A DNA stretch of 64,000 nucleotides, taken from contig OZ287068.1 of assembly GCA_965645245.1 (NCBI GenBank), positions 744,001 through 808,000 of the forward strand, written 5' to 3'. The notes under the pieces were generated by a model. That model saw nothing but the letters and a program-made list of their open reading frames with translations. It was not told the origin of the DNA and did no database searches. Positions 36,857 through 64,000 of the stretch are shown here, piece by piece (positions within the stretch are counted from its first letter, which is position 1; every line of letters starts with the position of its first letter). The position numbers and the translations under genes were made by a program. This DNA comes from Massalongia carnosa (Eukaryota).

Positions 36857-36868
36857 TCAAAACCGGAT

Positions 36869-39457: not shown

Positions 39458-39522
39458 TTTGATGTTCTCTCATGCTACCTTAGTACCTGGGGTAGGTGGT
39501 TTGGATATAACTGCTGTGATGC

Positions 39523-39551
39523 AAATTTTCATGGTAACGTTATTAGGGTTT
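39523..39551 (-). promoter_or_regulatory. RRPE-like TGAAAATTT plus AAACCCTAA box upstream of NAF1
   Basis: Motifs lie 66-94 bp upstream of the ATG of a ribosome-biogenesis gene; they are short and could be chance matches. Confidence 0.3.
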
Positions 39552-41950: not shown

Positions 41951-42069
41951 TAGAGGTTTATCCGCCCACTTTGCGCCAATTGACGTCTCGGGGCCTATAC
42001 ACTTGCACTCCTTGTCGAAGGATAGCTGCTAATCGTGCTAGACCACTTTCGGAATGCAGAGAGCACCCC

Positions 42070-42545
42070 TCAGTGCTTACCGGCTCAAACACGCTACCGG
42101 CTCAAACACGCATTTTCAACATTTTACACGTCAACAATCAACAATATAATGATCAATTCATATTCAGCTATCGAGGATCGAACTGAAAGTGCAATGGCCG
42201 CGTTACACGATGATTTGTAAACTAATTGTCGAGCTGCAGCCATAGCTTTTGACGCTGCCCTTCGTACGGTTCAAAAACGATGAAAGAAGGCAACTCCAAA
42301 AGCAGTCGATCTAGTATCAACAAAGCTCTGACGGATGAGTACGCCGCGCAACGGGTTGGGTTTTTGCCACAAAATTGCTTTTTCGCCACCGGGTTTTTCT
42401 CTCAAAACTCAACCCGGACACCAAAAATCATAGTGTTCGCCACAAACGGGTTGGGTTTTCAGTAGAGAAACCCGACCCGTTGCGCGGCGTACGGATAAGC
42501 AAGAACAAGCTTTTCGTGATTACATCGAGCGATTGGACAAGGGAT
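42070..42545 (+). mobile_element. Truncated pogo/Fot1 relic (5' end and HTH of the transposase)
   Basis: MINSYSAIEDR..*TNCRAAAIAFD..RTVQKR*..KALTDE[MITE]QEQAFRDYIERLDK aligns by eye to the N-terminus of the pogo transposase at 44758. Confidence 0.75.
42340..42491. mobile_element. 152-bp non-autonomous hAT-like MITE
   Basis: 24-bp TIR TACGCCGCGCAACGGGTYGGGTTT with one mismatch; 8-bp TSD CGGATGAG / CGGATAAG; removing it restores KALTDEQEQA. Confidence 0.85.
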
Positions 42546-42650
42546 TAAAAATTATCTGATTCGTTTTGAGAATCGTTGTCATGAAACGGCTTCGAACCAA
42601 AAGGATCTCGGCCTTATCCGTAGTTGCCCCCTCTATCCTGTCCCTACCTA

Positions 42651-42810
42651 CCGTACCGCAGGTTCATTGGAGCTATCGCAGGTTCATTGGACCTACCGCA
42701 GGTTCATTGGACCTACCGCAGGTTCATTGGACCTAACGCAGATTCATTGGACCTACCGCGGGTTCATTGGACCTACCGCAGGTTCATTAGACCTACCACA
42801 GGTTCATTGG
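42651..42810. repeat. Tandem array, 8 x 20 bp ACCTACCGCAGGTTCATTGG
   Basis: Counted directly; no unique spacers. Confidence 0.95.
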
Positions 42811-42905
42811 TCAGTGCGCGCTGTTCCAACCTTTCTCGATGCGGTTAGATCGAGTACGGCTCCGCCTCCGATCTTCGAAACCATAATTACCCGGTCCCCA
42901 TTAGG

Positions 42906-43120
42906 TGTCTTCGTATTAACTTAGGAAAAGGAGATGAATAGGAGACATCGAAGATCAAGGAAACAAAGGGGTAAGGAGGTGAGGAACAGATATAAAAGAA
43001 GGGGTCGAGTCTCGAAAGTTCTGGCTCCTTGTCCGACGCCTTGAATAGCCAATCTAGCCTAGCTGTAGCTATAGACTCAGTCAATTAGAAAGCTTGACCA
43101 TCCAATCCAGTCCCTTGACA
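42906..43120 (+). mobile_element. Possible short LTR remnant
   Basis: TGTC...GACA termini and internal TATAAAAG, but no matching TSD. Confidence 0.35.
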
Positions 43121-43135
43121 ATCATACTCTTGATC

Positions 43136-44165
43136 TGTAATGGGCTACGAGACCAGTAAGCTTATCACGAGCGAAACTGATCTCGAAAGGGGAAATGCTC
43201 AGCGTGAGAGGAGGAAGATAACTACTACGTGCTAGTCTCCGAGAGTATATGTGATCCAAAGAACTAATGGATGTGGAAGTGCTTGGACCAAGAGATCTCG
43301 TCCGAGACCCAAACGTAGGTTGTTCATAGAATAAAGACTAATTGCTAACGAATACTACAAGATTCGTTCTGATATTTATCCTACTCACCCCAAGCCTATA
43401 GCCTTGGGAGCTTTGGAACCTTAGGAGCTTTGCAAGCCTTGGGAGTCTTGCGAGCATTACAGCCTTGCAATCCACATCCGACTTTATCGCATTACATCCA
43501 ACCATCCCTCAGGATCCATCCACGAACTCGGCGTTCGCTGGATCATCTAGTCAGCCTCGAGCAGCCTTCTAGATCTTCCCTTGCAAGGTAGAACAATTCT
43601 ACCCCCGGCTAGATCCCTCACTACATGCCTCAGGCTATGTAGCTTCATTTCGCCGTCACCACTACCTAGTGATGGAAGGTTACCTCCGACTGAATACCTC
43701 GCTACACTGCGGACCTGCCTCTAGACACAAGGTCTAGACAACGAGGTCATGTAGGTTCATTCAGCCGACATCACTACCAACGTAGTAATAAAGGTTGAAG
43801 CTGAAGTTTACACCGGGGAGCCTAGCTCAAACTGCGTCCAGCGAGCCGTGCCTCCTGCTACCTCTCTTGAACCATCAAGAGATCCAGTAGCTCCGAGTAG
43901 GCCAGTAGATTCCATATAGAGTTCCTCGGCGTCTCCACAGGAGTCCGCCTTACACTCCATGGCAATCTACCACCACGGCCTCGACAGGTGTTTGATCTGT
44001 AAGTAGTCAAGAACGTGATAACAATAACTCCGAAGTTTCGGGGCAAGATGGCAGTGTGACAGCCTCGACGGCTTATGCGACTTCGTACTACGGCATGGTC
44101 CACGCTAGTTAATCCCGCAACCGCCATAGGCGATCACGTATCCCTCTAGCGCCATCCGTATTACA
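43136..44165. mobile_element. Solo LTR, 1030 bp, RIP-like composition
   Basis: TGTAAT...ATTACA termini flanked by an exact 5-bp TSD TGATC (43131-43135 / 44166-44170); rich in TAG/CTA. Confidence 0.8.
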
Positions 44166-44643
44166 TGATCATCAGTGACTGAAGCGATTTCTTGATCGAA
44201 ACCCCGAGTTTCATGTACGAAAACAGAAGCCTCTCGCGATCGATTGAAAATATTACCACGACATTAACGATATGATTGAATATTTCAGCAAATTAGAAAG
44301 GATGATGAGGAAAAAGAAAATAATGAAGAACGAAACAAACTTTCGAAATTGAACGCGAACAAGCTCAAATAGTAATCATCTTGAATTCACGAAAGCCTCT
44401 TTGTTGAAATAGGTATATGAATATGGCTATATGGCTATGATAAAAATGGTAACGATAAAGAGTACTGTTCAGCAGTCTTTGTCTCATAACTGGTCACCCT
44501 CTGCTAAGCGAGGTGATAAGATTATACGAGCCGATCTTATCTAATATCTAAGCTAAGCCTAATACGGCATATATGGTTTCCGTAGGTGCTCTGTCCATCT
44601 TGGGCAGTCGTAGGTGCTACGAAGTTCTGTTAGGAGTTGGATA

Positions 44644-46557
44644 ATCGTGCCAAAACACTAAACCCCAACCGAGTCAGGGTCTAGTGCCCATCACCCTACT
44701 GACGCACTTTTCCCATTTTTACTACCATTTCCACCACGTCGTTCATCCACCACCACCATGACTAATTCATATTCTAATAAGGAGGATCGAATTGTTGACG
44801 CTATAAACGCGTGGGACACGGGTGAATTTCGAAGTATACGCGCAGCAGCCATTGATTTTGACGTGGAAGTTCGTACTCTTCAAAGACGACTTGCTGGAGG
44901 AGGTTCGCGCATTGGCCGAACTCCCCCCAAGGCGTTATCTGATGAACAGGAATTGGCTATTTGTGATTACATTCGAATGCTCGATCAAGCTGAACAATCA
45001 GCCAGATTTCCAATGGTTCGTGGAGCTGCCAATTATCTACTTCGAGAAGCTCATTTAGACGCCTTCACTCCCCCCCACATCGTCAGCAATTCTTGGACTA
45101 AACGTTTCCTCAATCGCAATCCTCAGTTCTTCAAACGAAAATAAAAACCTTTGGCGGCCGAGCGAAAACACGCGCACAATGCAAAGGACATACGTGAACA
45201 TTTCGAGGCATATCGGGCTGCGCGCGAGGCGCGGGGAATAGTGGACGAGGATGTTTGGAACATGGATGAAACGGGCTTTCGAATTGGCTGTGGCAGGGCT
45301 CATTGGGTGGTGTCAGGTCATTCCAGAGAGCCTCTGTTGTTGACAGACCCAGACAACAGAGAATACGTCACCTCCTGTGAGTGTATTAGTGCTGGTGGTC
45401 GAGACATTCCTCTAATGGTGATTATCGCGGGGGTTTTGATTCTCGAAAAATGGGCACAGCAGAACGACCTGAATGACGATGTTTTGTTGACTACTAGTCC
45501 TACCGGCTATTCCAATGATGACTTGGCCATTGATTGGCTGAAATATTTTGATAAACACCGTCGAAAGGGTCAGGTAGGTGCCTGGCGTATGTTGATTATG
45601 GACGGATATGGATCTCATATGACATACGAGTTCTTTACATATGCCAAACGAAATCAGATTGAATTGTTTCGTTTGCCACCTCATTCAACACATCTCACTC
45701 AGCCATTGGATGTAGGATGTTTTCAGCCATTTAAACATTATCATTCCGAAGCCACTGACGAACTGGTACGACTCGGAGGGGCAGATTTCGACAAACTCGA
45801 CTTTTTGTCGATTTTTCAGCGCATGCGAAATCAAACATTCACCTCGGCCACTATATTATCGTCATTCGGAAACACGGGTTTGGTGCCTTACAATCCCGAT
45901 GTGGTAATTCGAAAGTTGAAGGCCATTCAGACCCGAAGACCTGCTACCCCGCCCCCACCTTCGTCAGCCCCATTGCTCGCCAGAACGCCCCGTACGACTA
46001 AAGAGGTGGTTGAATACGGTATGCGTCTCCGTATGAGTCTGGCCAAATACAAGGTGCTCGACAACGAATGGGAACGTCATGTAGGGCGATTTGTGAAGGG
46101 TTCCATTTCCAGCGCTCATGCACGTCAGATTGTTGAACGGGACCTTCTGGCCAGTCATCAACAATCCGTCGCAAAGGCGGCCCGTAAAAAACTGGATGGA
46201 AAGGTCGCCCAGAAGGGAGGGGTCATAACCGTGGGGGACATACGAGCCAAAACCTCAAAACGCTGTCAGAATGAGGTGGAAATGACCAGGCTGGCCTATG
46301 AATGGGCCCCACTAGCTGCTGAAAGAAGCAGATAGCCCTGGACAAAAGGTATAAACGCATCGCTCGATCGATGCCCAGGCAAGCAAAGCTGTTTTACCAG
46401 CGTCATAATCAATGAAATCTTGATTAACCGTTGTTGTCCCCAATTTGTAGCGGAAATGGTAGTAAAAATGGGAAAAGTGCGTCAGTAGGCTGAATGCGTC
46501 AGTAGGGTGATCGGCACTAGACCCTGACTCGGTTGGGGTTTAGTGTTTTGGCACGAT
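44644..46557 (+). mobile_element. Full-length pogo/Fot1 (Tc1/mariner) DNA transposon, 1914 bp
   Basis: Long near-perfect TIRs starting ATCGTGCCAAAACACTAAACCCCAACCGAGTCAGGGTCTAGTGCC; TA flanks at 44642-44643 and 46558-46559. Confidence 0.93.
44758..46335 (+). pseudogene. pogo/Fot1 transposase (HTH, CENP-B-like, DDE_1) with a premature stop
   Basis: WNMDETG, IMDGYGSH, LPPHSTHLTQPLDVG; in-frame TAA at 45142-45144 (RK*KPLA, likely CAA>TAA). Confidence 0.9.
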
Positions 46558-46567
46558 TATTCAATAC

Positions 46568-46765
46568 CTAGTTGTTCGAGCCCATGGAGACGGTCGGGAT
46601 ATCCACCACCTTAGTCGCCAGTTTATCCTCAATCTCGCGGATGAGGAGATTGAGGTCCCAGCGGTCGGCGAACGGGCAGCGGCCGTCGCACACCAGACGC
46701 AGCAGGTTCCGGCCGTCGTAGTCACTTCGGTCGGCCACGGTGGGCCAGCAATCTCGGAAGCTCAT
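46568..46765 (-). pseudogene. N-terminal exon of a phosphotransferase/kinase-like (APH-like) fungal protein, truncated next to the pogo insertion
   Basis: WP...DYDGRNLL.LV..G..PF...WDLNLLIREIE..L...VVDIP.VS.GSNN recalled as the start of a fungal APH-like family; no downstream exons found. Confidence 0.45.
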
Positions 46766-47732
46766 GGTGGGACGGTACGGGAAACGGAAGAGGCAGCGAT
46801 CAGACGAGCGCCGGGTGCAAAGACAGAGAAGCTGAGAGTAAAGGCGGAGGAGGGTGGGAGAAATTGGTTTGGGGTTGTTAGTGGGACGCCACATGTATGT
46901 GTTGCGGCAAATTTAGCGATATTTGCGAATGGCCGGGTGCCATTTGCGAACGGGCCTTGATCAGATAGCAACGTACGGATTGAAGCTGCCATCGGAGGTC
47001 GGAGCCCAAGAGTCTAGCGCGAGGGATGGGCCATTGGCTGAATGACATATTTCTGTAAGCCCCACTCCTCATACGGGCTCTCGCTCCTGCCTTCTTCTAG
47101 AATATATAATTTTCTAATTTATCAAATAGACAACAAAGAAGTTTTTCCGAATCCTACGACAATATGGCTTGAGTCTGGCTCAAACATTCCGCTAGCGGAT
47201 TTCTCCCAGGCCAGAAATCCGCCCAGCAAACTGTCACATGTTGGGCTATGAGTATGTTCTGGGCGGAAATTTTCACCCAAGAACTTAGGTTAGTATAGTA
47301 ATCTGGTCACTGTAAGAATACTTCTAAATATTACAATCTCTATAAAATCTATTCAGTCCGGCTGAAAAATCTCGATCGTGGGTGCCTGCCTACCTCGCGG
47401 CTCGTCGAGAACCTCTCCAAACGAAAGATGTTTGTGAATCGAGTACGGTTGCCTTAGCTGAAGCAGATTTGACCTTGATTTTCGCATTGGTAGGAAGTAG
47501 TAGTTTAGTAACTGTTGTTGCGAGAGCCGCAAGGAATTGGCTCATGTAGTAAACAAAATCTACTTAGGACTGGCCAAACGTCACAGAGCTGCTTATATAA
47601 GCAGAGTCCTGTGGCTGTGCGCTTGGGCTTGTTAACTCTCCCGGCCAGACAGTACTCTACCTCATCAAGCCAACCATCTCTTGGAGTATTGCGAGGCCGT
47701 GACACCCTCTTGCCAAGACTGCCCGGAATTGG

Positions 47733-50456
47733 ATGAGCTCTCTTATTTCCGATCAGCTTCAAAATTTCGGCTGCGAAGCACCAGATTCGCTCGAGATGAC
47801 CCACCTTTCGCAACACGATCGCACCATTATCGTAGAGCATCCTTTGGACGACTCCCTAGATCATCTACAAGATATACTTCGAAAAGCAGAGCAGTCTTAT
47901 CAGCTGGATACGATTTCTTATGATGGAGCTGTTGACAGGACCGACCAAGGACTTCAAATGGCAACGTCAAGGCTTCTCGGTGCTTTGCTTGGATCAGAAG
48001 CAGCCGGTCATCTTCACTCAAAGATTGGAAATCGAGATATAGCTTCTGACTTACTAGCGGTCCGCAAACGCCTCCAGAAGTGTGACTTCAACTACGAACA
48101 CTACCGTGCGCTATCACGATTTTTTATCAAGAAGGTATCGGACGTCGAAATCTGGAACGCCGTCTTCAATCTCATAACCACTCTTTCCCGGATAAGCCCT
48201 CCAGCAAGCATCCCCCCCTCATTCGACGGGACGCCCATCACGCATTCCTCCGCCTCGCAACAAGGTAGCGAGCAGACCAAAGATTTATTGGAAGGACCAC
48301 TCTTTCACGAAATCAAAAATTGTACATACTGAGGGGTTGACGGATTCTTCTCGAAGTATTTTGAAGGCAAAGAGTGGAGTGAACGAGGCAAAGAGATATA
48401 CAATGCCATGAAGAGCCGGCATATCGACGGGCGATGGAGCGACTTCCCAAGTCCACCAGAGGAAAATGCCGTATGGGAATGGCTACGCCGTTTTCAGGAG
48501 GAGTTTCTGTCTGAAGCACAAGGCATCTACTACAAAACCCTAAGTACCAAAGACCTTACTGGTGCTGAAGCCCGACGCCAGCTTGACCTCTTCATCAAGC
48601 AACGAGGCGATACGGCCAGTGCGATACACGACTGGAAGGACGTTCAAGTGATTGGCGAACTTAGAGTATCTAATAAAGAGTGGATGACGAAGCTGCTCCA
48701 GCTCAGCAGGTACGTGCGCGACGTCTTTTTTACTCAGCCAACCCGCCGGTTCGTCCATTGTTTTACTATCTTGGGGATGACCATGGAACTCTGAGTGTTC
48801 GATCGGTCTGGTCCCTACAGCTCAGGTGAATTCGATATCCACAAAGAACCCGAGCAATTCATCCGAGCTATTACAGGCTACGCCATGATGAGCGACGAAG
48901 AGCTGGGCTTGGACACATTTGTTGAGCGGGATGGAGGAGATCTATTCATAACCATCACGGAAGATGCTACTAGAGACGAAAAGAGACTTCAGCTGGTGTC
49001 AGATCCGCTTGTCGTGCAACGAGCCATTATTTGTCGAGGAACAAACTGCTATCGCACCAAGGATTCGAAATCTGTCGCAAGATTCGCATGGGCATCCGAC
49101 AAACGGCCATCAGAGGTAGATCTTCTCAGGATGGCACACCGGAAAGGTGTAAAAGGAGTTGCAAGATTATTAGGTTACCATCGCATAACCAGCATCAAGG
49201 ATATGCGTGACGGATTAATCTTTCCCACTCCGTATCACTTCCGGAATACCTCGCCAAAAGCTTCGTTGTCTTTCTCGCAATCACAATCACAGCAGCTACT
49301 TTCTCAATCTTTTGGGCCGCTCCAACGCTTGAGCTTCGCCGAGACTTCTCCGAGGACCTCTTCGAAGAAACGAAAATCTACGGACCACGAAGCACAGTCT
49401 TCAAAAAGGTCAAGATCCAACAGTCAGTCGAAACTACGCCAGGAACACAAAGCGACAGAAGCCCCAGAGAATGCACGAACAACTGAACGAAAAGCTGTTG
49501 ATAACGAAGCAACGCTGTTCAAAAAGCCAACATCCGTCAATCAAAGATCGAAATCCCATCAGGAAGTGTCGCAAGCTCCGAATGATGCACGTTCAAGGAA
49601 ACGGAAGTCGCAGGACAACGAAGAAAAGTCTTTAAAGCGGTCGAGATCCAACAGTCAAACATCGAGCCAACACCAGGAGAACGAAGCGTCACAAGCTCTT
49701 GTGAGCACACAAGCCTCGAGTTTTTATGACCTAGGTGATGGATCATTTAAGCAACGCCTGTTCGGCTGCCTGGCTATCTCCCCGGCCGGACAAAAAATCA
49801 GTAAATTCGACTCGATCCCGCAACTATTAATGGCGCTCCGCGACGCAATTAAGGCGCATAGGTCCTTATATTTTGATGGAAACATTTTGCACAGAGACAT
49901 CTCGGAAAATAACATTATTATAACAGATCCAGAGAAGGCCGATGGCTTTACTTGGATGCTGATCGATTTAGACCTTGCCATTCAAGTCGATGGCGGGCGA
50001 ACCGGCGCACGGCAAAAGACAGGCACAATGGAATTCATGGCGATCGAGGTGCTACGTGAATTTGATCATACTTATCGGCATGACCTTGAGTCGTTCTTCT
50101 ACGTGCTTATATGGATCTGCGCTCGGCGTGCGTGGGAAAGGGAATTCAAGTGCAAGCTGTTGGATCGACCCAAAGAAAGTATGCTGACGGATTGGTACAC
50201 GGGCAGCTACAAGCAAATAGCTCAAAGGAAAAGGGATGCTATGGGTGTTACTGGATTTGAGGAACTATTAGATGAATTTCCGTGGGTATTCGATTGTCTC
50301 AAACCTCTTTGCAGAGAGATACGGGGTACCCTGTTCCCGTATCGGGATGGGCTGTTTATCGGAACCCCACCGGATCCAGAGGAGTTGTATGGTCCTATCA
50401 ATCGTGCATTTGATGAGGCTATAATTAAGATAGCCAGCGCAGGGGGTTCGGGATAG
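47733..50456 (+). pseudogene. Fungal-specific protein kinase FunK1/Bgt_EKA-like (Pkinase_fungal) with two in-frame TGA stops
   Basis: Three ORFs in one frame; HDWKDVQVIGEL, QPTRRFVH, MEL*VFDRSGPYS, MSDEELGLD, ILHRDISENN, LIDLDLA, TGTMEFMAIE, HTYRHDLESFFY. Confidence 0.9.
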
Positions 50457-52516
50457 CTAAGAATTCGCCTTTTTACATACCAAATGTATATTTGCATCCT
50501 GTTTTAGAGGATGGAGGTGATTCAAGTAGACGTGCAATCACATATTACACTCATCGAACAGTATACAATAACATTGGCGGTTCAATTTAAGCTACTCCGT
50601 ATTCGGCTTTGACCTTGCTGGTGTTGATTGCAACTCGCGATTAGATCTAATATTCATATCAATTGAAACTGCACACAGCCATATGCTTCTCGAGGTTTCT
50701 GTGAACGAGAAATCGTGACCCTTTTCGAGTTTCACACTAGGAATCGCAATAATATTCTTAGCAATTAATGCAAATACTTCACCGTCTGCTATTTGTAGTC
50801 ATTTACTAGTGGCGCAGAGGCGCTCTGGGGAATAGAGCTTACATCAGCGAGAAGTCCTCGGAGTAAATTATTGTACAATCACTTATGCAGCCGCCTAGTT
50901 TCTTCTCTATTTACTGTGTCAAATACGAAAGACGCCTATTAGAGCTGGATGAGTCTTCAGAAATGGATGTCGCCAATGGGTATCCGAAACAAGATCCCAA
51001 GCTCCTACCTCCATTTCTGGCTGCCCTCCACCTTTGCTTCGTCCTTTCTCTGGACTTTTCAGGGTCTACTGCACTCCTACGTTCGTTCACTTTTTTCTTC
51101 GCCTCGTCGATCTGGCTTTTTACCTTTCTTTCCTTATCGACCGACCTACTGTGCAAAGACCGATCCCATACCAAGGTAGAAATCTTAACATGGTAGAGCC
51201 TTTGGAACTCTGGTAAGAATGGTCCGTCTAAAAAAAAAGCTATTGCTAAACTATTTTCTTAAGGCCACACTCGCCGACGAAGCCAACATTGAGGACGAGG
51301 TACCAGACATTGAACACGAGAAGGCAACAGATATTAAAGACGAGGCAGCAACAAACATTGAAGACAGGGGCAATAGGAACGAGATTCCGCGAATAAACAC
51401 GCTGCAGGTTCAGCATGTACTGCTGCAAGGGCCGAAGACCTCAGACCAATCTTCGAGGTCTATAATGGGGCAGCTATCCCATCTTCAATCCTGCTAGGCA
51501 CTGCAGCTTCACCGAAATCTAGCAATAGCCTCGCCGCGTTTTTCTCCCACACCTCGCTTTTATGTGTCAAGGCCCTGAATTGCTTTGTTCCAGGTGTCGT
51601 CTGTACTATTATTTGAATTATCTTTCTCAATGATAAGACGGCTCACAAATTTCGTGCGTATGTATAACTCAGCTGCTCCTGGATCGATCCCATGGTACGT
51701 AAGACATCGAGCTGGATACGGTCTACCGCGGGCTTTCTCGTCAACTAAGCCCTCACATGGTCCGAAGGAGGTCACTAGTGAAGCTGAAGGCAACGCCTAG
51801 ATCGACCTTAAGAGCGAGTGTGGGTGGGAAACGAGGCTAAGGCCAGCGGGTGGGATGAAGCTGAATGCAACGCTTAGATCGACCTTAAGCTGTAAGAGCG
51901 AGGTGTGGTTGGAGAACGAGGCTATGGTCAGGGTGGGATACACCTCTTGATACGGAAGGCATGATGCATTTTCCCACATAGATCCTCGATCTCATGATGT
52001 TGGGATGTACGGCTTCTTTGTGGGCTGGCGACCATCAAAGCGCTTGGTTACAATATGACACATTGATGCTCCGCATCGAGCGTGCTCTCCGGAAATTCGT
52101 GGCGCTCCGATGTGGTGTGGATGGACAACGGGACACACTTATCTCCTCACATACAAAGAGTCACTAATGAAGAGTTTGTAAAGCTCAACATGCGAAAGAA
52201 ACTACGACAAAATCGTGAGCGAGGCTACTACAACGAAGCTCGGATCCTCAGCAAGGAAGTCATCAAACAGCGAGAGAGAAAAGAAGTAGAAAAAGCTAGG
52301 GCAAAAGAGTCGGACACAATATTGCTGGGACTACGAAAACTTTGGGAACGCCGAAGGGCTATTACACAGTTAAAAAGGCCCCAAAATTACCTTCCAAAAG
52401 GCTGCAAATCAAAACCCATACCGCATCTGAATCACCGGCCAAAAAGGGGGCCCAAAAGACGTCTAAGTCATCCCAGGAAGCTAGCTGGAAGAGTAACGTG
52501 AGGGCGATTAGAAGAC

Positions 52517-52550
52517 TTAGGTTCGATCCCTAGCGCTGCCATTTAATTTT
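52517..52550 (+). other. Isolated tRNA-like 3' half (T-arm, acceptor strand, T-rich terminator)
   Basis: TTAGG-TTCGATC-CCTAG hairpin, then CGCTGCCA and TTTAATTTTT; no complementary 5' acceptor strand upstream. Confidence 0.4.
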
Positions 52551-53120
52551 TGCCTCGACATTCCAAAATTGCCTCAATTTTGACCCCTGTATATTGCCAA
52601 GACTGCCAAGACTGCGCGGTTGACCCATAAACCCTCCTAATCCTAAAAGGCTCTAGTACCGAATGTGCATGATTTTGTTAGGCGAGGAGAGTCCTATTTT
52701 GGATTAACCTATTGTGGTCGGAGGCCCTCCGTGTGAGCCGTTGCGTGCGCCTGGCCGCTGCATATGCCAGGGAAGCGTATTTTTTAATTTTTTTATTCAT
52801 TAAGCGTATGCATCCTTAGGATATGACGCTGTGACTGCTATTTATGTACATAAAAAACAGTCAGGAAGTGGAAACCTGGCCCCCAGGGTAAAACCACTCC
52901 CTTTTATTCCATATTGAACGCAACGAGATCGTTCTTCTACCACGCGGTGCATACACCCAGATCTTCAAGCGCTAGGAATCCTGTAGACCCGATGAACTAG
53001 ACAGTGTATCTCCACACGTTCGACGAACATTCTCTCTCTTTAACCGTTTTGGCTCAATAGATGATAGACTGGCCATGATCGAGGGCAGATCGTGGTGTCG
53101 TATAAATGAAGATGTGAAAA

Positions 53121-53338
53121 TGTGGCCATTCCGAATGAATGGGCTTTTTCGATGAGGTGAGAGGCTTCCGCCGGGGGGGTGTGGCCATTCCGACTGAATG
53201 GACTTTTTCGATGAGGTGAAAGGCTTCCGCCTGGGGGGTGTGGCCATTTCGACTAAATGGGCTTTTTCGATGAGGCTTTTTCGATGAGGTGAAAGGCTTC
53301 CGCCTGAGGGGTGTGGCCATTCCGAATGAATGGGCTTT
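53121..53338. repeat. Tandem array of ~59-bp units (three full plus one partial)
   Basis: TGTGGCCATT starts at 53121, 53180, 53239 and 53312; the third unit has an internal 14-bp duplication. Confidence 0.92.
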
Positions 53339-53652
53339 GTATGCCTTCGAAGTAGTGAATGATCAGTAGAGACGTTGATCATTCAAACGGCCACCGAGGT
53401 GGGCTTCAGCGTTGGCGATGATCAGATATTGGCCACCTCCGAGGAGGTGTTGATAGCCTGCACCACGTAGAAGTTTCTGACCTAGCAGGCCCAGGGAAGC
53501 GTATCTACCATGAGGAAAGTTCGATGTGCAATTGCAAGTGACCATCGTAAATGAGCCTCCTGCAATTCTAGAGATCTCAAACTAGGTAATGACTGGGAAG
53601 CAAACCCTTCCCTTCATCGATTCAGCAGAAAAGGAACACTATCAACCAAATA

Positions 53653-54514
53653 CTACGACAAAGCCTTGGGTCTCGACGTGGACCGAGACCTGGTTCGGGT
53701 ACGACGTCTGACTTCAAGAACAAGAAGGAACTCATGGCCATCATGCAATTCACCAAGAGGCCAGTCTACCATATCTCGCACCCATGCCAGGGCTTCAAGC
53801 GGTTCGGTATGGTCGACCCAAAAGCCAGTATTAACATTTGATACAAGTCCGCTGGCGTCCTCGGGGTTGAAGAGACTACCGCTGAGTTTAGCATCTTTGA
53901 TATAGCGTATTGGGGACGCTTTCATAATCTTTTCCGCATGTTCCTTGATAAAGCCAAGTCGAACTGTGTTGATGGAGCCTATAATATTCAGTGTTGGATT
54001 CACAAGTGGTAGTGGTATGAGCTTACTTCCAAATGCTTTGGCAGCAGCCAAGCAAGCAGCTGGATGAGAGCTCATAAGGCCGTAGATATCATCGTCATCA
54101 TGCCTGAGCTGATTTAAGAGACACATTGCAAGTCCTCGCTCTCGATAGTCTTGATGTACTACGAGCTGAGTAACCCAACATATAGTTTTGTTATCGTATG
54201 CCCAGCGGCAAGCGAACGCGTTACCAGCAAGGTGGCCATCGACGGTCACCCTCACGTAAGAACATGTGGCGTCGTCGGGTAGGTATTCCGCTCGAAGTCT
54301 TCCCTTACTGAGTCGTACGTGACTACCTTATGTTCTTCAGCAGGCAAACAAAATCGGTGAGAGATAACTTACCAGCCTTTGCAAACTTGCCTACCACCTG
54401 TACAGCGTGCTCGCCCCAAACGCCGTATTGCTCACTGAAGAGCTGTGAGGCTTCCTGAAGCATGCCCTCCGTGACCTGACTTCTATCAAAGTTTTCAAAC
54501 ACTTGCTTCTCCAT
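53653..54514 (-). CDS. GNAT-like acetyltransferase domain protein, apparently intact, spliced
   Basis: LFSEQYGVWG, intron from 54372, GHLAGNAFACRW..ICWVTQLVVHQDYRERGLAMCLL (GNAT motif A-like), GFWVDHTEP, WPLGELHDGHEF. Confidence 0.7.
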
Positions 54515-54676
54515 CTTCGAACGTCTGTTTCGTGTGCGTCTTCTAGGCTCAATAGACAGTTTATCAGGTAGTGCGGAGAATGCGACGGATTTGCGCGGTA
54601 CTTTCGATGTTCTCATCACGGGAGGCGAAAGGATCCTAAGCACATTATTACATATGAGTAGTGTCCATTTTCAAAT

Positions 54677-57142
54677 GGGAATCAATACCGGGACACCCCT
54701 TTTCACTACCTTGACACCCCCAAGGAAGCTAACCAAATCGGGTATAAATTTCCCTCGGGCGGCAGAAATAACTCGAGAAAACATGCTCGATTTGATGAAT
54801 TCAGGTGTGTTTTAGACAGTCGTTTGATGCTTTCTCGATGATTGTTTCATTGAATTGGGCTTCATTTCGTGTTTACATTTGAAAGGCCTGGAGCAAACCC
54901 ACTCCATCTACTTCAATCGATTGAATAGCTTCACCGGAGGCCACCCCTTCACCTTGTGACTGCCCTCTGCCCCGTCCTCGCCCTCGCCCTCGCCCTCGCC
55001 CCCGCCCTCGCCCCCGCCCTCGCCTCGGAGGCCCATTCAACACCTCCTCGACATGTTCGAACCCTGATAACTCCCGTTGGGTAGAGTTATCAGCCTCCCG
55101 TTAAGCTCTTTCCGATTGTAAACGCATCGCGATTGACGGACGCCCTTGGGGTCGGGCTACTACCTCGGGGTCGCGCACCAATAGCAAAGGATCGATGACA
55201 TTTGGAGGTGGTGATTCGTGGCGATAATAAGCCCGATCAAGGGGGCGCTGAAACCACCATTTGATGTGAATGTCGTCGCGCTGAAGCACATTGGGGGCCG
55301 GGCCAGAAAGCCGAACCTAATTGCAATAGAATTAGTACGTTTCAGGGCTATTTCCTTCAGTTTATCAACTTTCCTGGATTTTATGAGCACATGGTAGCCC
55401 CATTGTTGCTCGAAATGCCCCGGTGCATAATGAAAGAGGGGTCTTTTGATCCAAAAGACGTTCGTACTGACTATGCACCTTCAACAATGCAAAAGGCGTG
55501 ATATAAGCCCTTACATCGCTGTAAAGAGGTCTTCTTAGTCGGGTAGAAAAGCGCATTTTAGCCTCATCCAGTTTTATCACGTACTCTTGATGCTGATTCT
55601 TTAGTAACAAATCAATGTTGTCGACCACCTTTTTGAGATCACCGGTAGAAGATCCCAACTGATGTTTCAAGACAGCATGGCCCCCCTCCACCCTAGAGGT
55701 AGCAATATTGTCGAAATGAAGAACTTTGTCGACGAATGCCTTGACGGATTTTTGTTTATATGGGGCTAGCCATGTGTCTACCAGATACTGCACTTCCGCT
55801 GAATGATTATGTGAATAAGCATCATTCAGAGCGTCCCAATTGACCTCATATTCCTCTTCAGTCTTTGAATAAACCACCCCATGACACATGCTTTCGAAGG
55901 CCATCCAGTCATCGTCGGAATGAGCTCTATGTCTAAAAACAGGTTTCCAATGCTCCTGAACATTCCTGTGAATATGCCACAAGCATAACAAATGACGTGT
56001 GTCAGGAAACACACTGTAAATAGCGGCCATGAGACCAATGTCTCGATCGGTTACTACTACCTTTGGATAGGAAATACTCAGCATTCGATAAAGAATTTTT
56101 AATTGTTGAAAAAACCAAACATAGTCCTCTTTACGTTCTTGACGAAGAAAGGCAAACCCCAAATAAAATGAGGTGTTTAGGGCCGTTGTTCCCATTGTTG
56201 ATATCAATGGTAATTTGTATCTGTTGGTTTTATAGGTGCAGTCCATGATTAACACGTCGGGGATGGTCATCAGGGTGCTTTGACAGGAATCTTTGCTGCA
56301 ATAAAGATGTGTTATGCGATCGAGATTGTCTTTGAGATAAAACGAATTCCTACTGCAATTTAGTATGTAAAATATTGCATCTTCTCCGTACATACCAATG
56401 AGGCCGATTTAACTCCTGCATCAACGCCTGAATGGGAGTCGTCGTCCTAGTGCCTTGTGTCGAATTTCCGCCTTCGCATTGTAAATATCTTGTCGCTTGA
56501 AAAGAGGATTATTGTCATTTATATCGTCAGTCTGCCCGAGCCGAAGAGACGAAAGGATTTGACTCAGTTTCATTTGCACCTTCATTGCGCGCATAATTTC
56601 ATCAGCTATAGCTGGGGTGATAGCAAGTTTTCTGAGCGATGGATGAGAGCCTTCCACGGTAGCAGAGTGATTGTGGCCTGGATTTCGAATATCGCGAATT
56701 ATCCATTCATCGTCTTTAGACTTGACCACTACAGAGAAAGGACAGTCAATGGTCCTGGAGGTTCCATGTAATCGTTTCTGTCCTCGAGGCTGACGGTCCT
56801 TTCGTCCTCGGTCGCAACAAGTATAACATGTGTCTATCAATCCAGTGGTCGCACACTTTTTGGTGCGAAGCTGGCAGACAGCATACCCCTCAGGGCCTGC
56901 GTGTTTTTGCATGGCGACAAGAAGAAGATTGAGCGATCCATATGTTTCGTTCAGCATGTGGGTGGGAGGGGCAAGATTCATATTGATAGCTGATTGGTTA
57001 ATGTGCATGCAATGACGAATAGAAGATATGAGTGCAGAAATTTTCGAAGTTCCAGCTCCGGAACGGATAAACAGCCCGATTTGGTTAGCTTACTTGGGGG
57101 GTGTTAATGTAGTGAAATGGGGTGTCAAGGTAGTTGATTCCC
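54677..57142 (-). mobile_element. Complete Mutator-like element (MULE), 2466 bp
   Basis: ~67-bp imperfect TIRs GGGAATCAA...AAGCTAACCAAATCGGG; exact 8-bp TSD TTTCAAAT at 54669-54676 and 57143-57150. Confidence 0.9.
54900..56981 (-). pseudogene. MULE transposase (FAR1-like zinc ribbon plus MULE DDE), frameshifted; 3' end approximate
   Basis: CCDRG..CPF..HNH; MDCTYKTNRYKLPL, VVTDRDIGL, LCLWHIHRN, TSRVEGGH, MGLPCAH; split over several frames; GR-repeat tail. Confidence 0.9.
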
Positions 57143-57287
57143 TTTCAAATTCAGGATGGGATGAGGGGCTCGACGCTTAGTCATTATATGTTTCGCCACG
57201 TGCATATCTTGGCACACTCGGTATCTACTAATGGCGCCCTCTCTTTTGAATATGGAGGCGGGACTTTTGAAACCGAACTTTATTGTC

Positions 57288-60200
57288 TTAATTCGGCCCT
57301 TCAAACTCTAAACTTCCCGGTAATACCCAACCTGCCATTGACTCTATCTGGAGTCGCGCAGAATCAAACAAATATGTGCCAACACCAGGTATTAAAAACT
57401 GCGGCATTTTGCCATTAATCACTTCCATAGCATGATTAAAGGCTGCTCTGCTCCCATCTAAATTTCTAAGTTGGAAACGTATGGAGCAAATGAACAGATA
57501 AACCAGACCACAGGTGAAAACCTCCTCTTCGAGAGGGTTGTACTTCCTATTCCAGTTTAAAGCGTCGCTCCAGAGTCCTTCAGCTTGAGATAATGGAGAG
57601 ATCCGTGCCCGGGCGATGAGTGCACGAACATGACCTAGTCGGTCGGTGATATCGGGTTCAGTTAACCTGCTATAGATGCCCAAGACTTCCGTGATCAGAA
57701 TTTCTGCGTTGTTGAATCGACATTGTCTGATTTCGACCTCAATCAAGGCAAGGAGCAAACGTCGGAAGCCCTTCGAGTGCTGGCCACGCGCTTTCAGGCG
57801 CTGAATTTCCAGTTTTATCATCTCTTCGGCGTTATCTAGGAAAGAAATGTCCGGTGCCACGCATTGGTTTAAGTTATTTGAGTTTGATCCTTTGCGTTGC
57901 AAATAGTCCAGTTCGCTGTAAAGATCCGCAAGGCTGGACTTTATAATAACTCGCTGAGATTCACGGAGTCCAACCATCGCGAGACAACGTTCAAAACATT
58001 GCTTTGCTTCGTTGAAGTAGCCTTGTCCTTTGAGCGTCCGGCCAGCGAAGTATACTTGGTCCCAAACCACATCCATATGCCTCTGCGTATGGTTTGTGGG
58101 CGGCTTCCATTTCTGTACTTCTTTGTGTGCTTGGCAGAAGTCGAAGTCGTAGGCATGATTGGTAGCCTGAGAGAGGTGCAGGAGTCCTAAGACAAAATGT
58201 GATCTCAGGTCCGGCTCAGGGCTTAAACGGTTGAGGAATTCTTGTATTTGACGTTTCGAGCCGTATACATTACCTCTGAGGCGTAGCAAAACACTCTGTC
58301 GGTGAACGATTTCAGCCCGTAAAGGTACGTTTCCTGGATCTCTCATCGCCGTGGAGGCCATTGAGAGTAAATGTAGTCTCTTTCCTAGCGTCCCAAATCT
58401 AGAGACTGCTAGCAATTTTTCAACAACGTCATTGCCATAAGGAATCTCCAGGCCTGGCTTAGAGTATTCTCGCAAAAGATGTTCCAGGATGGCTAGCAGC
58501 TTCTTCTCCTCTGGTCCAGGTCTTAAAAAAGAGGTAAGTGACGTAGCCAGCTGAAGGAACGGTCAATAAAACTTACAGTGAATATTCTGTTTGATTGCGG
58601 GACAAAGCGTAGCAAAGTAACTCAAAGGCTTGGTTGGTCCAATATGATTTATTCTGAACGTACTGGGACTGGGCTGACTCCCATCCACATACGTAAGTTT
58701 CCATACCATCCGATTCTTCCACACCAATTGCCGAAAGTGAAACGAGTCGATTGACAGCTGGCCACAATTTCCTCCCATCTGAGAGAAGATCTCTGAGATG
58801 TGCGTGGAGACCAGTATTTTGCGGTGTAGTTTCGTATATCACACCAAGCCTGTTCCATCACTGTTGATATATTGCCCGCTCAAGCATGAATTTTGGGATG
58901 TAACCACCCATGGCGTAGAGTAGCGGTGGTATTAATCTTTCCGGCGATACAACCATACTCCTGTAATCGCTCTCCTGAGTACGTGAGAGGCGTGGATTCG
59001 ATGCCCTGATCGTGGGATAGGAATTGGATGCTAGAGTCGGGTATTAGTTAAGACCTTTACGGAGTCTAGTTGATCTCATCCGAAGTCAGGGGTCCATCAT
59101 TGCTTGGGAAGGAACTTGGCACCAAGACCACGAAATCAAGATCAACTAGAGTGACAGGGGTGCTCTTGAAAGCATGAACTTTGTATATGCTCTCGGCTGA
59201 CTTTGGCACATGATCCGAGGTGTAACCAAGGGCGGCGTATATTTCATCAATCCTAGCTCGTCAGCATTGCCTTTGTTAACGGGCCAGAATCCGTACGAGG
59301 GTTTGTTGGCCGTTATACTGCATGCGTTAAGCAGAGATGCGATAAGACCGGGAATAGTGTACCCAGATCCTAAACAATCGCTGTAATCATGTTTCACAAA
59401 CGCGTCTGTTTTGAGATGTTCGAGAATTGATCGTGAGTTTTCATCGTTCGGGATACGGGCAAGGTAGAAAAGAGATAGGGCGTCTGGGAAAGATGTGAGT
59501 GCAATTTCGCAAGTAGGGAGCTTAGAGAACACACTAATGAAGAACAGTTCTGTGGCCCGATAAATCGTCCAACCATGGCTGACTAGGGCAACAATAATGC
59601 CATTTATCCACAGGGCGCTCTTTAGTAATGCTTCGCGGTCACGCTTCCGGCCGGCGGCAATATGTTGGATTATCCGATCAATGGTGTCGTAAGGAATACC
59701 ACTTTTCCTAAGAACTTCACAGTACGACAGTAAGATGAGAGCTTGGAATTTGGCAAATGATGTCTAGAAGTCGGCGTTTATAAGGGAATCTCTGGTGAGC
59801 AAAGCGAACTTTTCCGCCAAGTCGACAAGTCCGTTCTGTGATTGTTCATCTCTCTGGTGGGGTTGTCTCTTGGGTATAACATTGGCGCGATTAGTGAAAG
59901 CTCGGATGGCCTCCTCGTACTGCTTTACAGTATTTAATTCGAGTTCGGTCTGTCTCTTGCGCCAGTCAGCGGCCTTAGGAGCATTCCGTAGAAACCAAAC
60001 CGCAGCCTCGGTCTTTCGTGACCTTTTTACACCTGGTCTTTTAGGATTTCTGCCTTGGGAAGTGTTTGACGATTGGGGCGTGAGTTGTGTTCTAGGCTCC
60101 TGTGATTCGGGTAGTTGTAGTTCGGGCTGTTGTAGTTCGGGCTGTTGTGGTTCGGGCTGCGACAATCCTTGAGACTCTGATGCGTGTAGAATCTTTCGCT

Positions 60201-60366
60201 TCTTAGCAGAGGGATCACCAGATGAATATCCACGGGGACTGAGAAAAACGTGTGCGTCTGATAAGTCTTGCAGTTGCTGGCTGAAGCCAGGGCAATGTTC
60301 GCAGTGCTGGCGTAGATAATCAAACAGGCCTTTGCGGACTATCACGAAGTCATCATCTACCGCCAT
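57288..60366 (-). pseudogene. Large accessory gene (or two genes) with a C-terminal TPR-like helical region; stops in the 5' and middle parts
   Basis: Open 395-aa C-terminal ORF with TPR-like GRTLKGQGYFNEAKQCFERCL; plausible upstream exons; TAG at 59764-59766 within a continuing reading frame; QPELQ repeats. Confidence 0.5.
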
Positions 60367-60628
60367 CTTTGACAGACGAATGGTTGGGGCAACGGATAAG
60401 ATGATTTCTAAAAAGTTAGTTTATTTCCCATAAAATGTAAATTAGACATACAATTTCTGTTAAAGTCGGCCATTTATCTCCAGACTGATAAATATAGAAC
60501 CTGCCATTCTTGTAAACCCACGTTCCGGCGTCAGCACCGCATAGTCTCGCAAACTGATGTGTTTTTTTAAAGAGAGTATGTCTCCTTCTGTTAGATTGTT
60601 GTAACTTTGATTTTGTTGTAGAAGGCAT
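60357..60628 (-). CDS. Small SRF-type MADS-box-like protein, 44-bp intron 60451-60408
   Basis: NRRRHTLFKKTHQFARLCGADAGTWVYKNGRFYIYQS..WP, then KSSYPLP; GTATGT donor, CTAAC branch site, TAG acceptor. Confidence 0.65.
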
Positions 60629-61609
60629 AGTTTAAGTCTCGTGGTGCAGTAAATTAGAGAGCGTAAAAGATTTTATAAAAGTAGCGAGATGTGAATTTAT
60701 AGAGCTTGAGATTACTGCCTCCATAAATGGGATTCGACCTGTAGGAGGCGCCGAAAATGGAGGTTCGGATAATCGGAAGCGCCTTGGTGAGGAAGCGCCT
60801 TTGGGACGTTCATTTCTTGCTGCACTCCATCTTTGCTCCATTTCAGCGTCCATTTTCTCTCGGGACTTTTCCAGGTCTACGGCACTCCCCGTTCTTTCGC
60901 CTTATTCATTCGCTATTCGCTCATCAATCTCACCGTCTGCTCGTCGACCTCTATCTCTATCTTCCTTCCCTCGTCGATGGGTCCCAGCTTAGGCGTCACG
61001 CACGTAGGCCCTACTTTCTCTCAATCGCTCTGGACTCGAGTACTCGCATAAAATAGGTTTAGACTTTCGGCTAGAGCTATGGGGAATTGACCATGAACCG
61101 AAGGCAAAGAGTCTTAACGCTGAGGGGATTTAGAAAGGAATTAGAACACAGAGGAGCAGGAACTGGAGCAAAAGCTGATCATAACTGGAGATTGATACGG
61201 CGTTGAATTTCTAGTTCAGTCGGTCACAACCACGAGCAAAGAAATATTTCAAGCGAAAAGCCTCTTTGAAATACTGCAGATATTCTCGTTCATGTGCACG
61301 ACACGCTCAAGGGCTTTCGCTGCGATCCTTGGTGTTACTCGTCGCTTCAGCGTCGATCTTCGTTATTGAAGTAGACAAGACATTACACGAATGAAAGAGA
61401 AAGCCAGCACCGCAAAGTTGGAATTATAACTCTATGGAACTTTGATCGAGCGGTCCGATCCGCGAACGTCCGACTGCACTCCTGATTATTAGCCACGCCC
61501 TCAGCCGATCATCCTAATTCAGTACAGACAGGCAAGTCTCTAACAACGGGGAAGAGGTGACATAAATTATCTTTATACCTCTCGACAAGGTCGGCGCCAA
61601 GAGCGCTGG

Positions 61610-62370
61610 TCCCCTACGGCGTTTTTGGCCCTAAGGCCGTCTCTTCCCTACGGCGTCTTTAGCCTCAAGGCCGTCTCTCCCCCACGGCGGTTTGTCCCCT
61701 ACGGCGTCTTTGGTTCCGCCCTCCATTTTCAGCGCCTTACCTCTACTTTATGCGGTGTCTTGCCAATTTCCGGTTGCGGCTTCTTTGCCCTCAAGGCGGT
61801 TTCTGCCCCACGGCGATTCGTCCCCTACGGCTTCTTTGGCCCTACGGCGGTCTATCCCCTAGGGCGGTTTGTCCCCTACGGCGGTTTGTCCCCTACGGCG
61901 TCTTTGGCCCCAAGGTGGTCAATCCCCTACTGTGTCTTTGGCCCCACGGCGGTTCATCCCCTACGGCGCCTTTGGCCCCACGGCGGTTCGCCCCCTACGG
62001 CGTCTTTGGCCCCAAGGCCGTCCCTTCCCCACGGCGGTTCGTCCCCCACGGCGGTTTTTCCCCTACGGCATCTTTTCCCTAGGGCGGTTCGTCCCCTACG
62101 GCGTCTTTGGCCCCCAAGGCCGTCTCTCCCCCAAGGCGGTTCGTCCCCCACGGCGTCTTTGGCCCTAAGGCGGCTTTGGCCCCACGGCGCTTCGTCCCAT
62201 ACGGCGTCTTTGGCCCTAAGGCGTCTTTGACCCTACGGCGGTTTGCCCCCTACGGCGTCTTTGGCCCTACGGCGTCTTTGGCCCTACGGCGTCTTTGACC
62301 CTACGGCGGTTTGGCCCCTACGGCATCTTTTGCCCTAGGGCGGTTCGTCCCCTGCGGCGTCCCAAGGCGG
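61610..62370. repeat. Complex GC-rich minisatellite of 16-18 bp related units with ~50-bp higher-order structure
   Basis: Alternating CCCTACGGCGTCTTTGG / CCCAAGGCCGTCTCT / CCCCACGGCGGTTCGT, roughly 40 units; interrupted near 61715-61780. Confidence 0.93.
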
Positions 62371-62700
62371 CTTATATGCGCGTCATACAGAATATTGCTC
62401 TACTTAAAGAGTGGGCGAAGCGGCGCAAGTGGACAGGCACGAATCCGTCTTAGCGGCTTCGTGGATGGGGGAGTTTGAAGACGCTGTTTAAAATTAGATA
62501 TGCGAGGACGGTTGAATGAAAGTAGAAGGTAAAGCGGGAGGAGCAAATAGACCAAAGCCAGACCTATGTTTTTAGATGACTTGACATGCGAAAAGCAGCA
62601 TATACTATATTATAAACGCCCATCGATATATGAAGAACCTAGTCCAGAATACTCGTGCTGCTAGCAATGGAAAAATATGCTCAGACTGCATGTGACATCG

Positions 62701-64000
62701 TTACAAATAAACACTGTGTACCGTAGCAGCATGGTTCTTGAAACGCATGACGCCATGAAGACTTACTCCAACACACGTTGGATGAGGACATAGAATCTCG
62801 TCATCGGAGCGGATTGACTTTAAGCGGCAGCGTTGAACATGTCGTTGAAGGCAGTATTTATTCTTGTATTCGCGAAGCCGCTCGTCCAGCGCCAGGTCAG
62901 GACTCCCGATACAGAAAATGCATTGGTAGGGCCTGCACTTGACCGGGAAAGCTTCTCGTTGTTCGGGCTCTGGCTTGCAGATATCCAGTTTGTAAGATTT
63001 AGATTCTGGTGGTGCGTTTTCTTGATACTCTAGAAATTCTAGAACGAGCTTCCGTTTGTTCGGTGTCGATAGTGAATCTCCTTGATCTCCCAAGGAGTCC
63101 AGTGTGGGCTTTTGCTTGGCGGATATCCGAGGGGCACGACGTTCTTGCAGCCTGCAGAGCGATTATCAGATCGTGGATTATTTTTAATCTCCAAGTATTC
63201 CCGTCCTTGGAGGCGAAGGCTGATTTATCGCAAAAGAAAGCCTCCGCTAGACGAGATCTCTCGATGAAGGCGTGTTTGGTGGTATTCGGTGTGGAAGAGA
63301 CGTTCTCGGAGAATTCGACTGATTCAGATAGTTGCTCCTGGATATCTTTCGTTGGAGCATTGACATCATAATCCGCCTGGGCTTGCTTCAATACAGCTCG
63401 TTCTCGCGTTCGAATCTTGCTGTGCATAGCACGATTAATAGCCATATAGTCATTGTATATGTCTTGTCCTTTCGCTTTTGAGACTGGGCCGTATTCTTCT
63501 CAAATTTCATCCAGCAGCCGATCTTTATAGTTGTAAAGGTCTTGTATATCCTTCTCGAGTTTGATTGCTCCTATTTGTTCGTTATTTAGTTTTTTGGGTC
63601 GTCGAGGATCCAACCATCTGCTCATTCGATTCGCCGCTCGAATAAAATCCGTCTAGCGAATTTCCAAGATATGCAGCCTGGGTATCATATCGAATAATAC
63701 GCGATAGGTAATTAAGCTCAAAGATTGCACTGTTACTATGGTCCATCACAAGATTGCGTACTGCTGGCTTGGAGTTAGGGTCGTCTAAACCCTATAATAT
63801 TAGCTTCAACTCCTTGCATGTTTTGATCTATGGAGAAGAGAGTATTTACCATTAACAGCGTTTCCGGCCCCACGCCGAAGACAATAGGTTGTTAGAACCT
63901 GCGCAAATCCTGTTTCTACCCCGAGACGTTTCAACCACCGATGGTACATCGCATACGTTAGAGCCTTACGAGGGAAAACTGGTGCGAAAAATATTGGGCG
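62701..64000 (-). pseudogene. DUF3435 tyrosine recombinase (Starship captain), 3' part, disrupted
   Basis: WLKRLGVETGFAQVLTTYCLRRGAGNAVN, intron, AVRNLVMDHSNSAIFELNYLSR, RMSRWLDPRRP, C-terminal QCIFCIG..LQRH..CPHPTC..FKNHAATVH; frameshifts near 63660 and 63160, TGA at 63500-63502. Confidence 0.88.

Follow-up and report, generated by a model that had tools for sequence, protein, structure and literature searches.

A 64,000-nt stretch of DNA from Massalongia carnosa (GenBank contig OZ287068.1, positions 744,001 to 808,000; hereafter the window, in whose coordinates all positions are given) raises the question of whether a giant transposon of the Starship type once inserted there, and how much of the DNA beside its recombinase gene was cargo. 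Starships are excised and integrated as whole elements by a DUF3435-type tyrosine recombinase, the captain (PMC10104507, PMC13486527). An earlier note, made from the letters of the window without database searches, had proposed a derelict Starship whose captain, at the right edge, heads about 20 kb of accessory cargo beside a block of core genes. We find that the captain is genuine and, barring assembly error, broken, and that the clade of loci to which it belongs is Starship-like; we consider it rather probable that the window holds the decayed head of a Starship-type element and that at least part of the region from 46.6 to 61.6 kb is a remnant of its cargo. A cargo of 20 kb with its 3′ end at 41–44 kb is plausible but unproven. 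The window copy is thus one more Starship relic, in which a 17-nt tandem array behind the captain is the feature that we did not find described.

The captain gene occupies 62701–64000 on the minus strand and is cut by the right edge of the window at base 64000. Three segments match the Pfam hidden Markov model of DUF3435 (PF11917, curated cut-off 25.8 bits): 63809–64000 with 41.5 bits (E 1.1e-10, profile positions 167–210), 63684–63773 with 17 bits (217–242) and 63002–63499 with 34.2 bits (307–396). The three are collinear, the two stronger ones together spanning profile positions 167–396, and this confirms the family that had been recognized from motifs. The peptides quoted at the time are indeed present in the minus-strand translation, with TYCLRRGAGNAVN read from base 64000 and NLVMDHSNSAIFELNYLSR at about 63760–63700, as is a Cys/His tail extending to 62704. 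Of the presumed active-site residues of the recombinase, the visible part preserves the arginine of LRR, the histidine of MDH and the tyrosine of NYLS, and the N-terminal arginine and lysine lie beyond the window. When a 217-residue stretch (63652–63002, its lone stop written as X) was compared by phmmer with 1.84 billion representative proteins, it found 179 relatives at E ≤ 0.001, nine of them at E ≤ 1e-30; a word-indexed homology search with a 166-aa piece of the captain, covering longer proteins only, returned no relatives, whereas the search without a word index did. The best relative, P0002, has 349 aa and is 61% identical (E 7e-58). Judged from alignment with the full-length relative P0007 (692 aa, 42% identity), whose residue 323 aligns at base 63967, the captain is about 690 aa long and is cut at about residue 312. 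The window therefore contains approximately its last 380 codons, or the last 55%, while some 310 N-terminal codons and the element's 5′ end lie beyond base 64000.

What remains visible of the gene is the end of one exon (64000–63850), an intron (63849–63785), the last exon (63784–62704) and a TAA stop codon (62703–62701). The change of frame at 63849–63785 was considered as possible damage and ruled out, because it corresponds to an ordinary 65-nt GT..AG intron with a CTAAT branch-like motif, the splicing of which joins NAVN to DDPNSK as in the relatives. In the C-terminal tail (62704–62960), Cys and His residues form two C2H2-like motifs (CxxC...HxxxC and CxxxxC...HxxxxxH); the tail belongs to no Pfam family, and a sequence search of the PDB gave nothing significant (best E 0.041). 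By searching contigs from metagenomes with aligned sequences of the C-terminal part of the captain, we collected 41 related loci (L-numbers below), whose captains are 30–43% identical in amino acid sequence to that of the window; the Cys/His tail is conserved in 39 of them. We also dropped the idea that database relatives of 150–370 aa are pseudogene fragments, since many of them correspond to the last exon, modeled from the Met of the MDH motif after the conserved intron. Such last-exon-only gene models (P0002, P0006, P0012 and others, as well as L004:9905–10882) possibly inflate the counts of "short captains" in protein databases.

As the earlier note had stated, the gene is not only truncated by the window and spliced but also broken, by two frameshifts and a stop that are apparent both in the sequence and by tblastn. 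All three lesions are in the last exon. The first frameshift is at 63653–63656, where LGNS and TDFIRAAN are separated by 4 nt in place of the two codons of the relatives; the in-frame TGA (63500–63502) replaces an arginine of the relatives (LLDEI[R]E.YGP); and the second frameshift is a single extra base near 63163 (63162–63164), between IHDLI and SLCRLQERR. P0002 provides an independent view of this damage, since it covers the last exon without loss across three frames: residues 1–30 in frame −3 (63746–63657), residues 33–207 in frame −1 (63652–63122) and residues 195–349 in frame −2 (63162–62704). The homologous exon is a single open frame of 343–360 aa, with NY[LI]S at one end and the Cys/His tail at the other, in 18 of the 41 related loci. 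Because two frameshifts and a nonsense codon interrupt it in the window, the full recombinase would no longer be made, and the captain gene as assembled is, barring assembly error, a pseudogene. That proviso matters, since small indels are typical long-read errors, each frameshift amounts to one such indel (in one case within an A/T-rich run) and the lesions at 62–64 kb are known from the assembly alone, which weighs against calling the element derelict; the captain might then be intact and the element possibly still active. We regard this as very improbable. Three independent lesions lie within 500 nt, one of which is a substitution (a CGA-type Arg codon to TGA), the neighboring FunK1 gene is broken too, and degraded copies are common in the clade, with 23 of the 41 loci lacking a single open last exon, some because the contig end cuts them. 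Moreover, among five public sequencing runs that contain part of 39001–49000, four of which had their contigs compared over 41001–61000, runs X2 and X3 show no difference from the window over its unique parts (about 14 kb), although they are possibly its own source data; X5 carries an identical sequence at low depth.

The related loci show how such an element behaves when its ends can be seen. In ten of them, which have unrelated AT-rich left flanks, the alignment has one common first base, exactly shared and situated some 0.6 kb upstream of the captain, and an identical start despite unrelated flanks is the signature of a mobile-element terminus. This terminus begins with an AT-rich motif containing TTAC that was found in 18 loci, once per locus and on the plus strand only, and the first gene inside the sharp 5′ boundary is the captain. 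From that common base onward, collinearity holds within three sets of loci whose left flanks differ: L011/L016/L020 are 99% identical over at least 9.5–12.3 kb, L007/L008 are 96–97% identical over at least 12.1 kb and L022/L038 are 91–97% identical over at least 12.4 kb, these extents being lower bounds because the alignments reach the end of the available contig DNA. The downstream DNA encodes DUF3723 and FunK1 domains in L010, NACHT-like and WD40 domains in L004, SesA and TPR_10/12 domains in L034, a HET domain in L016, DUF3638/DUF3645 in L008 and P450 in L002. With its sharp 5′ boundary, downstream DNA that moves with the captain irrespective of the left flank, and NLR, HET, DUF3723 and FunK1 genes, the clade is Starship-like. 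Two further observations concern individual loci. The heads and arrays (see below) of L022, L023 and L031 resemble G-to-A or C-to-T degraded versions of other copies, with GGGG cores that read GAG or AAA and last exons split into frames of 92–204 aa, which is consistent with repeat-induced point mutation (RIP) in those genomes, the window having no such signature. In L010, a second copy of the Cys/His tail (L010:13981–14253, minus strand; 38% identical over 92 aa) adjoins a DUF3723 fragment, in opposite orientation and at a distance of about 3 kb on the downstream side of the first captain, which suggests nested or head-to-head elements there.

Immediately behind the window captain, starting about 290 nt past its stop codon, lies a minus-strand array (61593–62410) in which a 17-nt unit is repeated in tandem about 48 times, with a higher order of 34 nt. 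The array is G-rich on the sense strand of the captain, its units open with GT[A/G]GGG, and two unit types alternate. It matches eight related loci at the corresponding place by tblastx, and a survey with Tandem Repeats Finder of the 38 loci (of 41) that have at least 900 nt of right flank revealed an array of 17-nt period, its strand agreeing with that of the window array, in 25 of them (L034:11288–11508, L013:11309–11569, L008:10641–11037, L022:11293–11608 and others). These arrays start 700–900 nt past the matched segment, which is about 360–420 nt past the stop codon, and number 3.7–23.4 units as compared with about 48 in the window. Of the 25, 19 contain three or more GT[A/G]GGG cores there; the GTAGGGGA core, the period, the place and the strand are common to the window array and arrays of related loci. 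Outside the captain-proximal zone such arrays are infrequent, with 19 of 17-nt period in 479 kb, or about 0.008 expected per 200-nt start window, and among the 232 arrays of at least 2.5 copies found in the loci, 43 have a period of 17, nine a period of 16 and one a period of 18. Most of the 25 array-bearing loci are nevertheless copies of one family, with heads 79–99% identical, and thus do not count as separate observations; in essence, the one independent comparison is between the window and this family.

The array is not universal. Of the 38 loci, 13 have none at the captain-proximal place, although L011, L016 and L020, which are among these, have one about 1.9 kb further on. Three other lineages (L004/5/6, L010/27 and L040/41) are without the array. 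Neither is its unit constant, since in L007, L008 and L033 the corresponding spot is taken by a different 17-nt unit, even though the heads of L007 and L008 are 92–93% identical to that of L034. Deeper 17-nt arrays with other units occur in several loci, for example L029:8630–8809 and L030:18558–18667. Since units of 17 nt do not keep the triplet frame and their number varies, the array is non-coding. Homology between different element types, counted from the 5′ end, stops at +3.1 to +3.35 kb, at or within the array, which therefore marks the border between a conserved head, extending from the 5′ terminus over the captain to the array, and a variable cargo. We tentatively propose, as a doubtful but specific reading, that the array is a putative cis element, namely a row of binding sites for an element-encoded protein with a GTAGGGGA-type core and 17-bp spacing, which marks and perhaps creates the head-cargo junction. 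Bearing on this are, first, that period, place, strand and core are common to the window and the clade even though the captains are only 30–43% identical, and second, that a different 17-nt unit occupies the same spot behind heads that are 92–93% identical, where homology between types ends. G-rich cores suit C2H2-like fingers, and the pair of such fingers in the captain's tail would be the obvious candidate binder. We know of no protein that binds the array and of no replication or partition function in Starships. The excerpts of the Starship literature that we searched (PMC11162782, PMC9156397, PMC10104507, PMC13486527) contain no description of a captain-proximal 17-nt array.

If the array were instead the 3′ end, the element would be a compact, Crypton-like tyrosine-recombinase transposon of 3–5 kb. 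Cryptons are small and without cargo. Like the element described here, they belong to the DNA elements of eukaryotes that a tyrosine recombinase moves, and the core conserved among related copies is only 3–5 kb in this clade: the part common to nearly all of them measures about 3.1–3.4 kb, with the array as its end, the similarity of L034 to L013, L015 and L012/L014 is limited to 4.6 kb, past which they diverge, and several copies are present per metagenome. The Crypton-like reading is, however, not supported, and we deem it highly improbable. The window recombinase is of the DUF3435 type, the three sets of loci remain 91–99% identical for at least 9.5–12.4 kb although their left flanks differ, and in none of the 41 loci is there an inverted copy of the 5′ terminus behind the array.

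How much of the window's own DNA beyond the array came with the captain can be judged from what it shares with the related loci. The captain reads leftward, into the accessory DNA. There, 13 of the 95 open frames of at least 70 aa (42058–62700) match the 41 loci, at six places that include a pogo transposon, FunK1, a segment at 53.7 kb, a MADS-like exon and the array, whereas in a control 205 of 206 core frames match nothing, the remaining one encoding a generic kinase domain. Three segments that are not transposons, MADS-like, GNAT-like and a FunK1 fragment, recur within 2 kb downstream of related captains. The first is the initial exon of a small MADS-like (SRF-TF) gene at 60419–60631 on the minus strand (Pfam, 29.7 bits vs a cut-off of 26), which is 52% identical over 63 aa in L004 and L005, has the same TEIV end and lies about 0.8 kb downstream of the captain in these loci; an exon of about 62–66 aa is found beside the captain in two lineages (window 60419–60631; L004:11684–11884; L005:6613–6801). 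We found no mention of MADS in those excerpts of the Starship literature that were searched for the word. The second is a GNAT-like segment at 53604–54327 on the minus strand, with an open frame at 53656–54327 that scores below threshold (20.3 bits vs a cut-off of 27), and whose 3′ part (53604–53828) shows 75% DNA identity over 228 nt with L010 and L027, where it lies 20–250 nt downstream of the captain stop. The third belongs to a FunK1 (Pkinase_fungal) pseudogene at 47703–50453 on the plus strand, the tail of which is 44% identical over 55 aa in L034 and L017, with shorter matches in L012–L015 (40–41 aa, 49–50% identity). Decay has thus reached beyond the captain, since FunK1, although in one frame, carries two nonsense codons (48330–48332 and 48792–48794), the second exactly at position 78 of the Pfam profile and the first read through in the L022 relative.

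These links are short and few, and it is possible, if rather unlikely, that the window contains a solo captain relic of which only the head (captain and array) survives or ever existed, with 42–61.6 kb being ordinary lineage-specific, repeat-rich DNA. Several observations point in that direction and weigh against a cargo. FunK1 genes are often numerous. The MADS-like exon is co-directional with the captain in the window but convergent with it in L004 and L005. No boundary of the element was found in the window, the 5′ end lying outside it: the 5′-terminal motif of the relatives has one match with three mismatches, as compared with 3.1 expected by chance, and there is neither a matching terminal repeat nor a 3′ end in the window, nor a matching terminal repeat in the related loci. 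No contig of the four runs spans the stretch (41001–61000) and no empty site was seen among them. The scanned frames (126 frames of at least 70 aa at about 35.4–63.5 kb, of which 21 were re-scanned at a looser threshold, and 41 short frames of 45–69 aa from the unassigned gaps of 46.6–61.6 kb) include no DUF3723, patatin-like, ferric reductase or NLR gene. Such auxiliaries are frequent in Starships, though not obligatory. Tetranucleotide distances of the unique accessory parts (18.8–21.0) fall within the range of the core (16.5–27.1) and RIP indices reveal no RIP signature anywhere in the window, so that nothing marks the accessory DNA as foreign. Finally, the fact that homology between element types stops at the array would allow heads to recombine freely with whatever follows. 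Set against this are the recurrence of three accessory segments beside related captains, with core frames matching next to nothing, and the relatives, in which the DNA past the array moves with the captain for at least 9.5–12 kb. We therefore favor a Starship-type head with a cargo remnant in at least part of 46.6–61.6 kb.

That remnant would be smaller than had been envisaged. The earlier note had listed MADS-like, TPR, GNAT, FunK1 and APH-like genes as cargo; FunK1 (as a pseudogene) and the MADS-like exon stand, TPR and GNAT are sub-threshold matches only, and no APH-like gene was found among the scanned frames, the 41 short ones included. The accessory stretch had moreover been read as plain cargo genes, and this reading fails because it contains a pogo element, a Mutator-like element (MULE) and a nest of repeats, with transposons and repeats making up about half of it. 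Its left limit has to be moved from 42651 to 42057, where the shared core flank ends on a contig of run X1, and we found no empty site, terminal repeat or joint across the accessory stretch that would establish a 3′ end near 41–44 kb.

From left to right, the accessory stretch begins with the high-copy repeat nest (42058–44630), which comprises a pogo-like relic, a 160-nt miniature inverted-repeat transposable element (MITE) and an insert of about 1.6 kb (42577–44168) that contains a 20-nt tandem array (42634–42830). Contigs of other copies skip the MITE and the 1.6-kb insert; the MITE-like insert (42338–42497) has 25-nt inverted ends and is exactly skipped by contigs of three runs. Summed contig depth over 41668–46400 is 100–1000 times that of neighboring single-copy DNA in X2 and X3, and since its peak (43002–44335) matches no protein family, this is a very abundant non-autonomous repeat in this organism. 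The nest is followed by a multi-copy pogo/Fot1-type DNA transposon on the plus strand (44631–46570) with inverted repeats of 76–107 nt, HTH_Tnp_Tc5 and DDE_1 domains and an in-frame stop (45142–45144). After FunK1, Pfam scans of the frames identified no recognizable gene at 50.5–52.3 kb, and a second high-copy repeat (52340–53673) holds a 59/73-nt tandem array (53121–53338). Beyond the GNAT-like segment, a MULE DNA transposon that is multi-copy in the runs (54669–57149, minus strand) displays terminal inverted repeats of about 75 nt and MULE and FAR1 domains. The longest unbroken accessory frame, of 424 aa (57291–58562, minus strand), has weak sub-threshold TPR matches and matches only generic TPR clusters in the ESM Atlas. 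Another frame of 424 codons (59149–60420, minus strand), with one in-frame stop (59764–59766), yielded no family or relatives, and the ESM Atlas gave no usable match for 59767–60420; it may represent later exons of the MADS-like gene or a separate decayed gene.

The core block to the left contains the housekeeping genes Exo5, OPT, PRMT3, PRP3, MAD1, muniscin, a kinase, an Alg9-like GT22 and NAF1; the last two, together with two unnamed open frames, form its right end (34325–42057, minus strand). Run X1, labeled lichen metagenome, provides a 9.5-kb contig from a relative about 97% identical (depth 28), which covers 41001–42057 and ends at 42057 where the repeats begin. This fixes the edge of the shared core and says nothing on what follows. 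Given the label of X1, the fungus may be lichen-associated. The zero depth of X1 in the unique bins 47004–47670, 50339–52339, 53674–54340 and 57676–59676 was weighed neither for nor against cargo, since lack of cover is not in itself evidence and no contig spans the stretch. Within the core block, 27775–29166 encodes a transposase of the Harbinger/PIF type (DDE_Tnp_4, 99 bits), and about 1 kb beyond this element there are an 11-copy array of a 14-nt unit (30246–30399) and a palindromic stretch (30540–30679).

We can thus outline how the locus may have arisen. An active ancestor, with cargo downstream of its captain, would have been integrated by its own recombinase beside the core block; pogo, MULE and other repeats would afterwards have inserted into it, and point mutations and small indels, rather than RIP, would have eroded captain and cargo. 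Within 46.6–61.6 kb, the cargo would survive as the MADS-like gene, the FunK1 pseudogene and the TPR and GNAT-like frames, and the 3′ end would lie somewhere in 42.06–46.6 kb or have been lost altogether. The element would now be immobile on its own; a broken captain leaves a Starship immobile unless a related captain acts in trans. More speculatively, the array might supply a series of sites for a binding protein, perhaps the captain itself through its C2H2-like tail, and act at the head-cargo junction.

This picture agrees in several respects with known Starships such as Hephaestus, with its captain HhpA, and Tangerine. In the window, as in these, a DUF3435 recombinase reads into accessory DNA, and the captain's relatives have a sharp 5′ terminus and at least 9.5–12 kb of co-moving DNA with NLR, HET and DUF3723 genes. 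The description of Tangerine, from Xanthoria parietina, portrays Starships as elements in which the captain comes first, close to the 5′ end, with auxiliary genes of the DUF3723, PLP and NLR kinds and with transposons nested inside, and it reports a putative degraded copy (PMC13486527); smaller transposons nested inside and degraded copies are also what we observe here. The window copy differs in that its captain is broken and that no termini, empty site or usual auxiliary genes were found. For the array, the closest parallel is one of analogy only. Iteron or partition repeat arrays adjoin plasmid replication or recombinase genes, as does STB of the yeast 2-micron plasmid, and they share with the array a short head-to-tail unit, a fixed place beside the element's DNA-handling gene and a variable copy number. 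Unlike these, the array described here has a unit that is only partly conserved, in its core, with another 17-nt unit in some relatives.

A decayed Starship head beside a block of core genes is ordinary by itself and is expected wherever Starships were active, and the case illustrates how readily "cargo" is overestimated at first sight. The captain-proximal 17-nt array is the single feature that may be worth pursuing; it would offer a handle on which non-terminal DNA Starship proteins recognize and on how captains join different cargoes.

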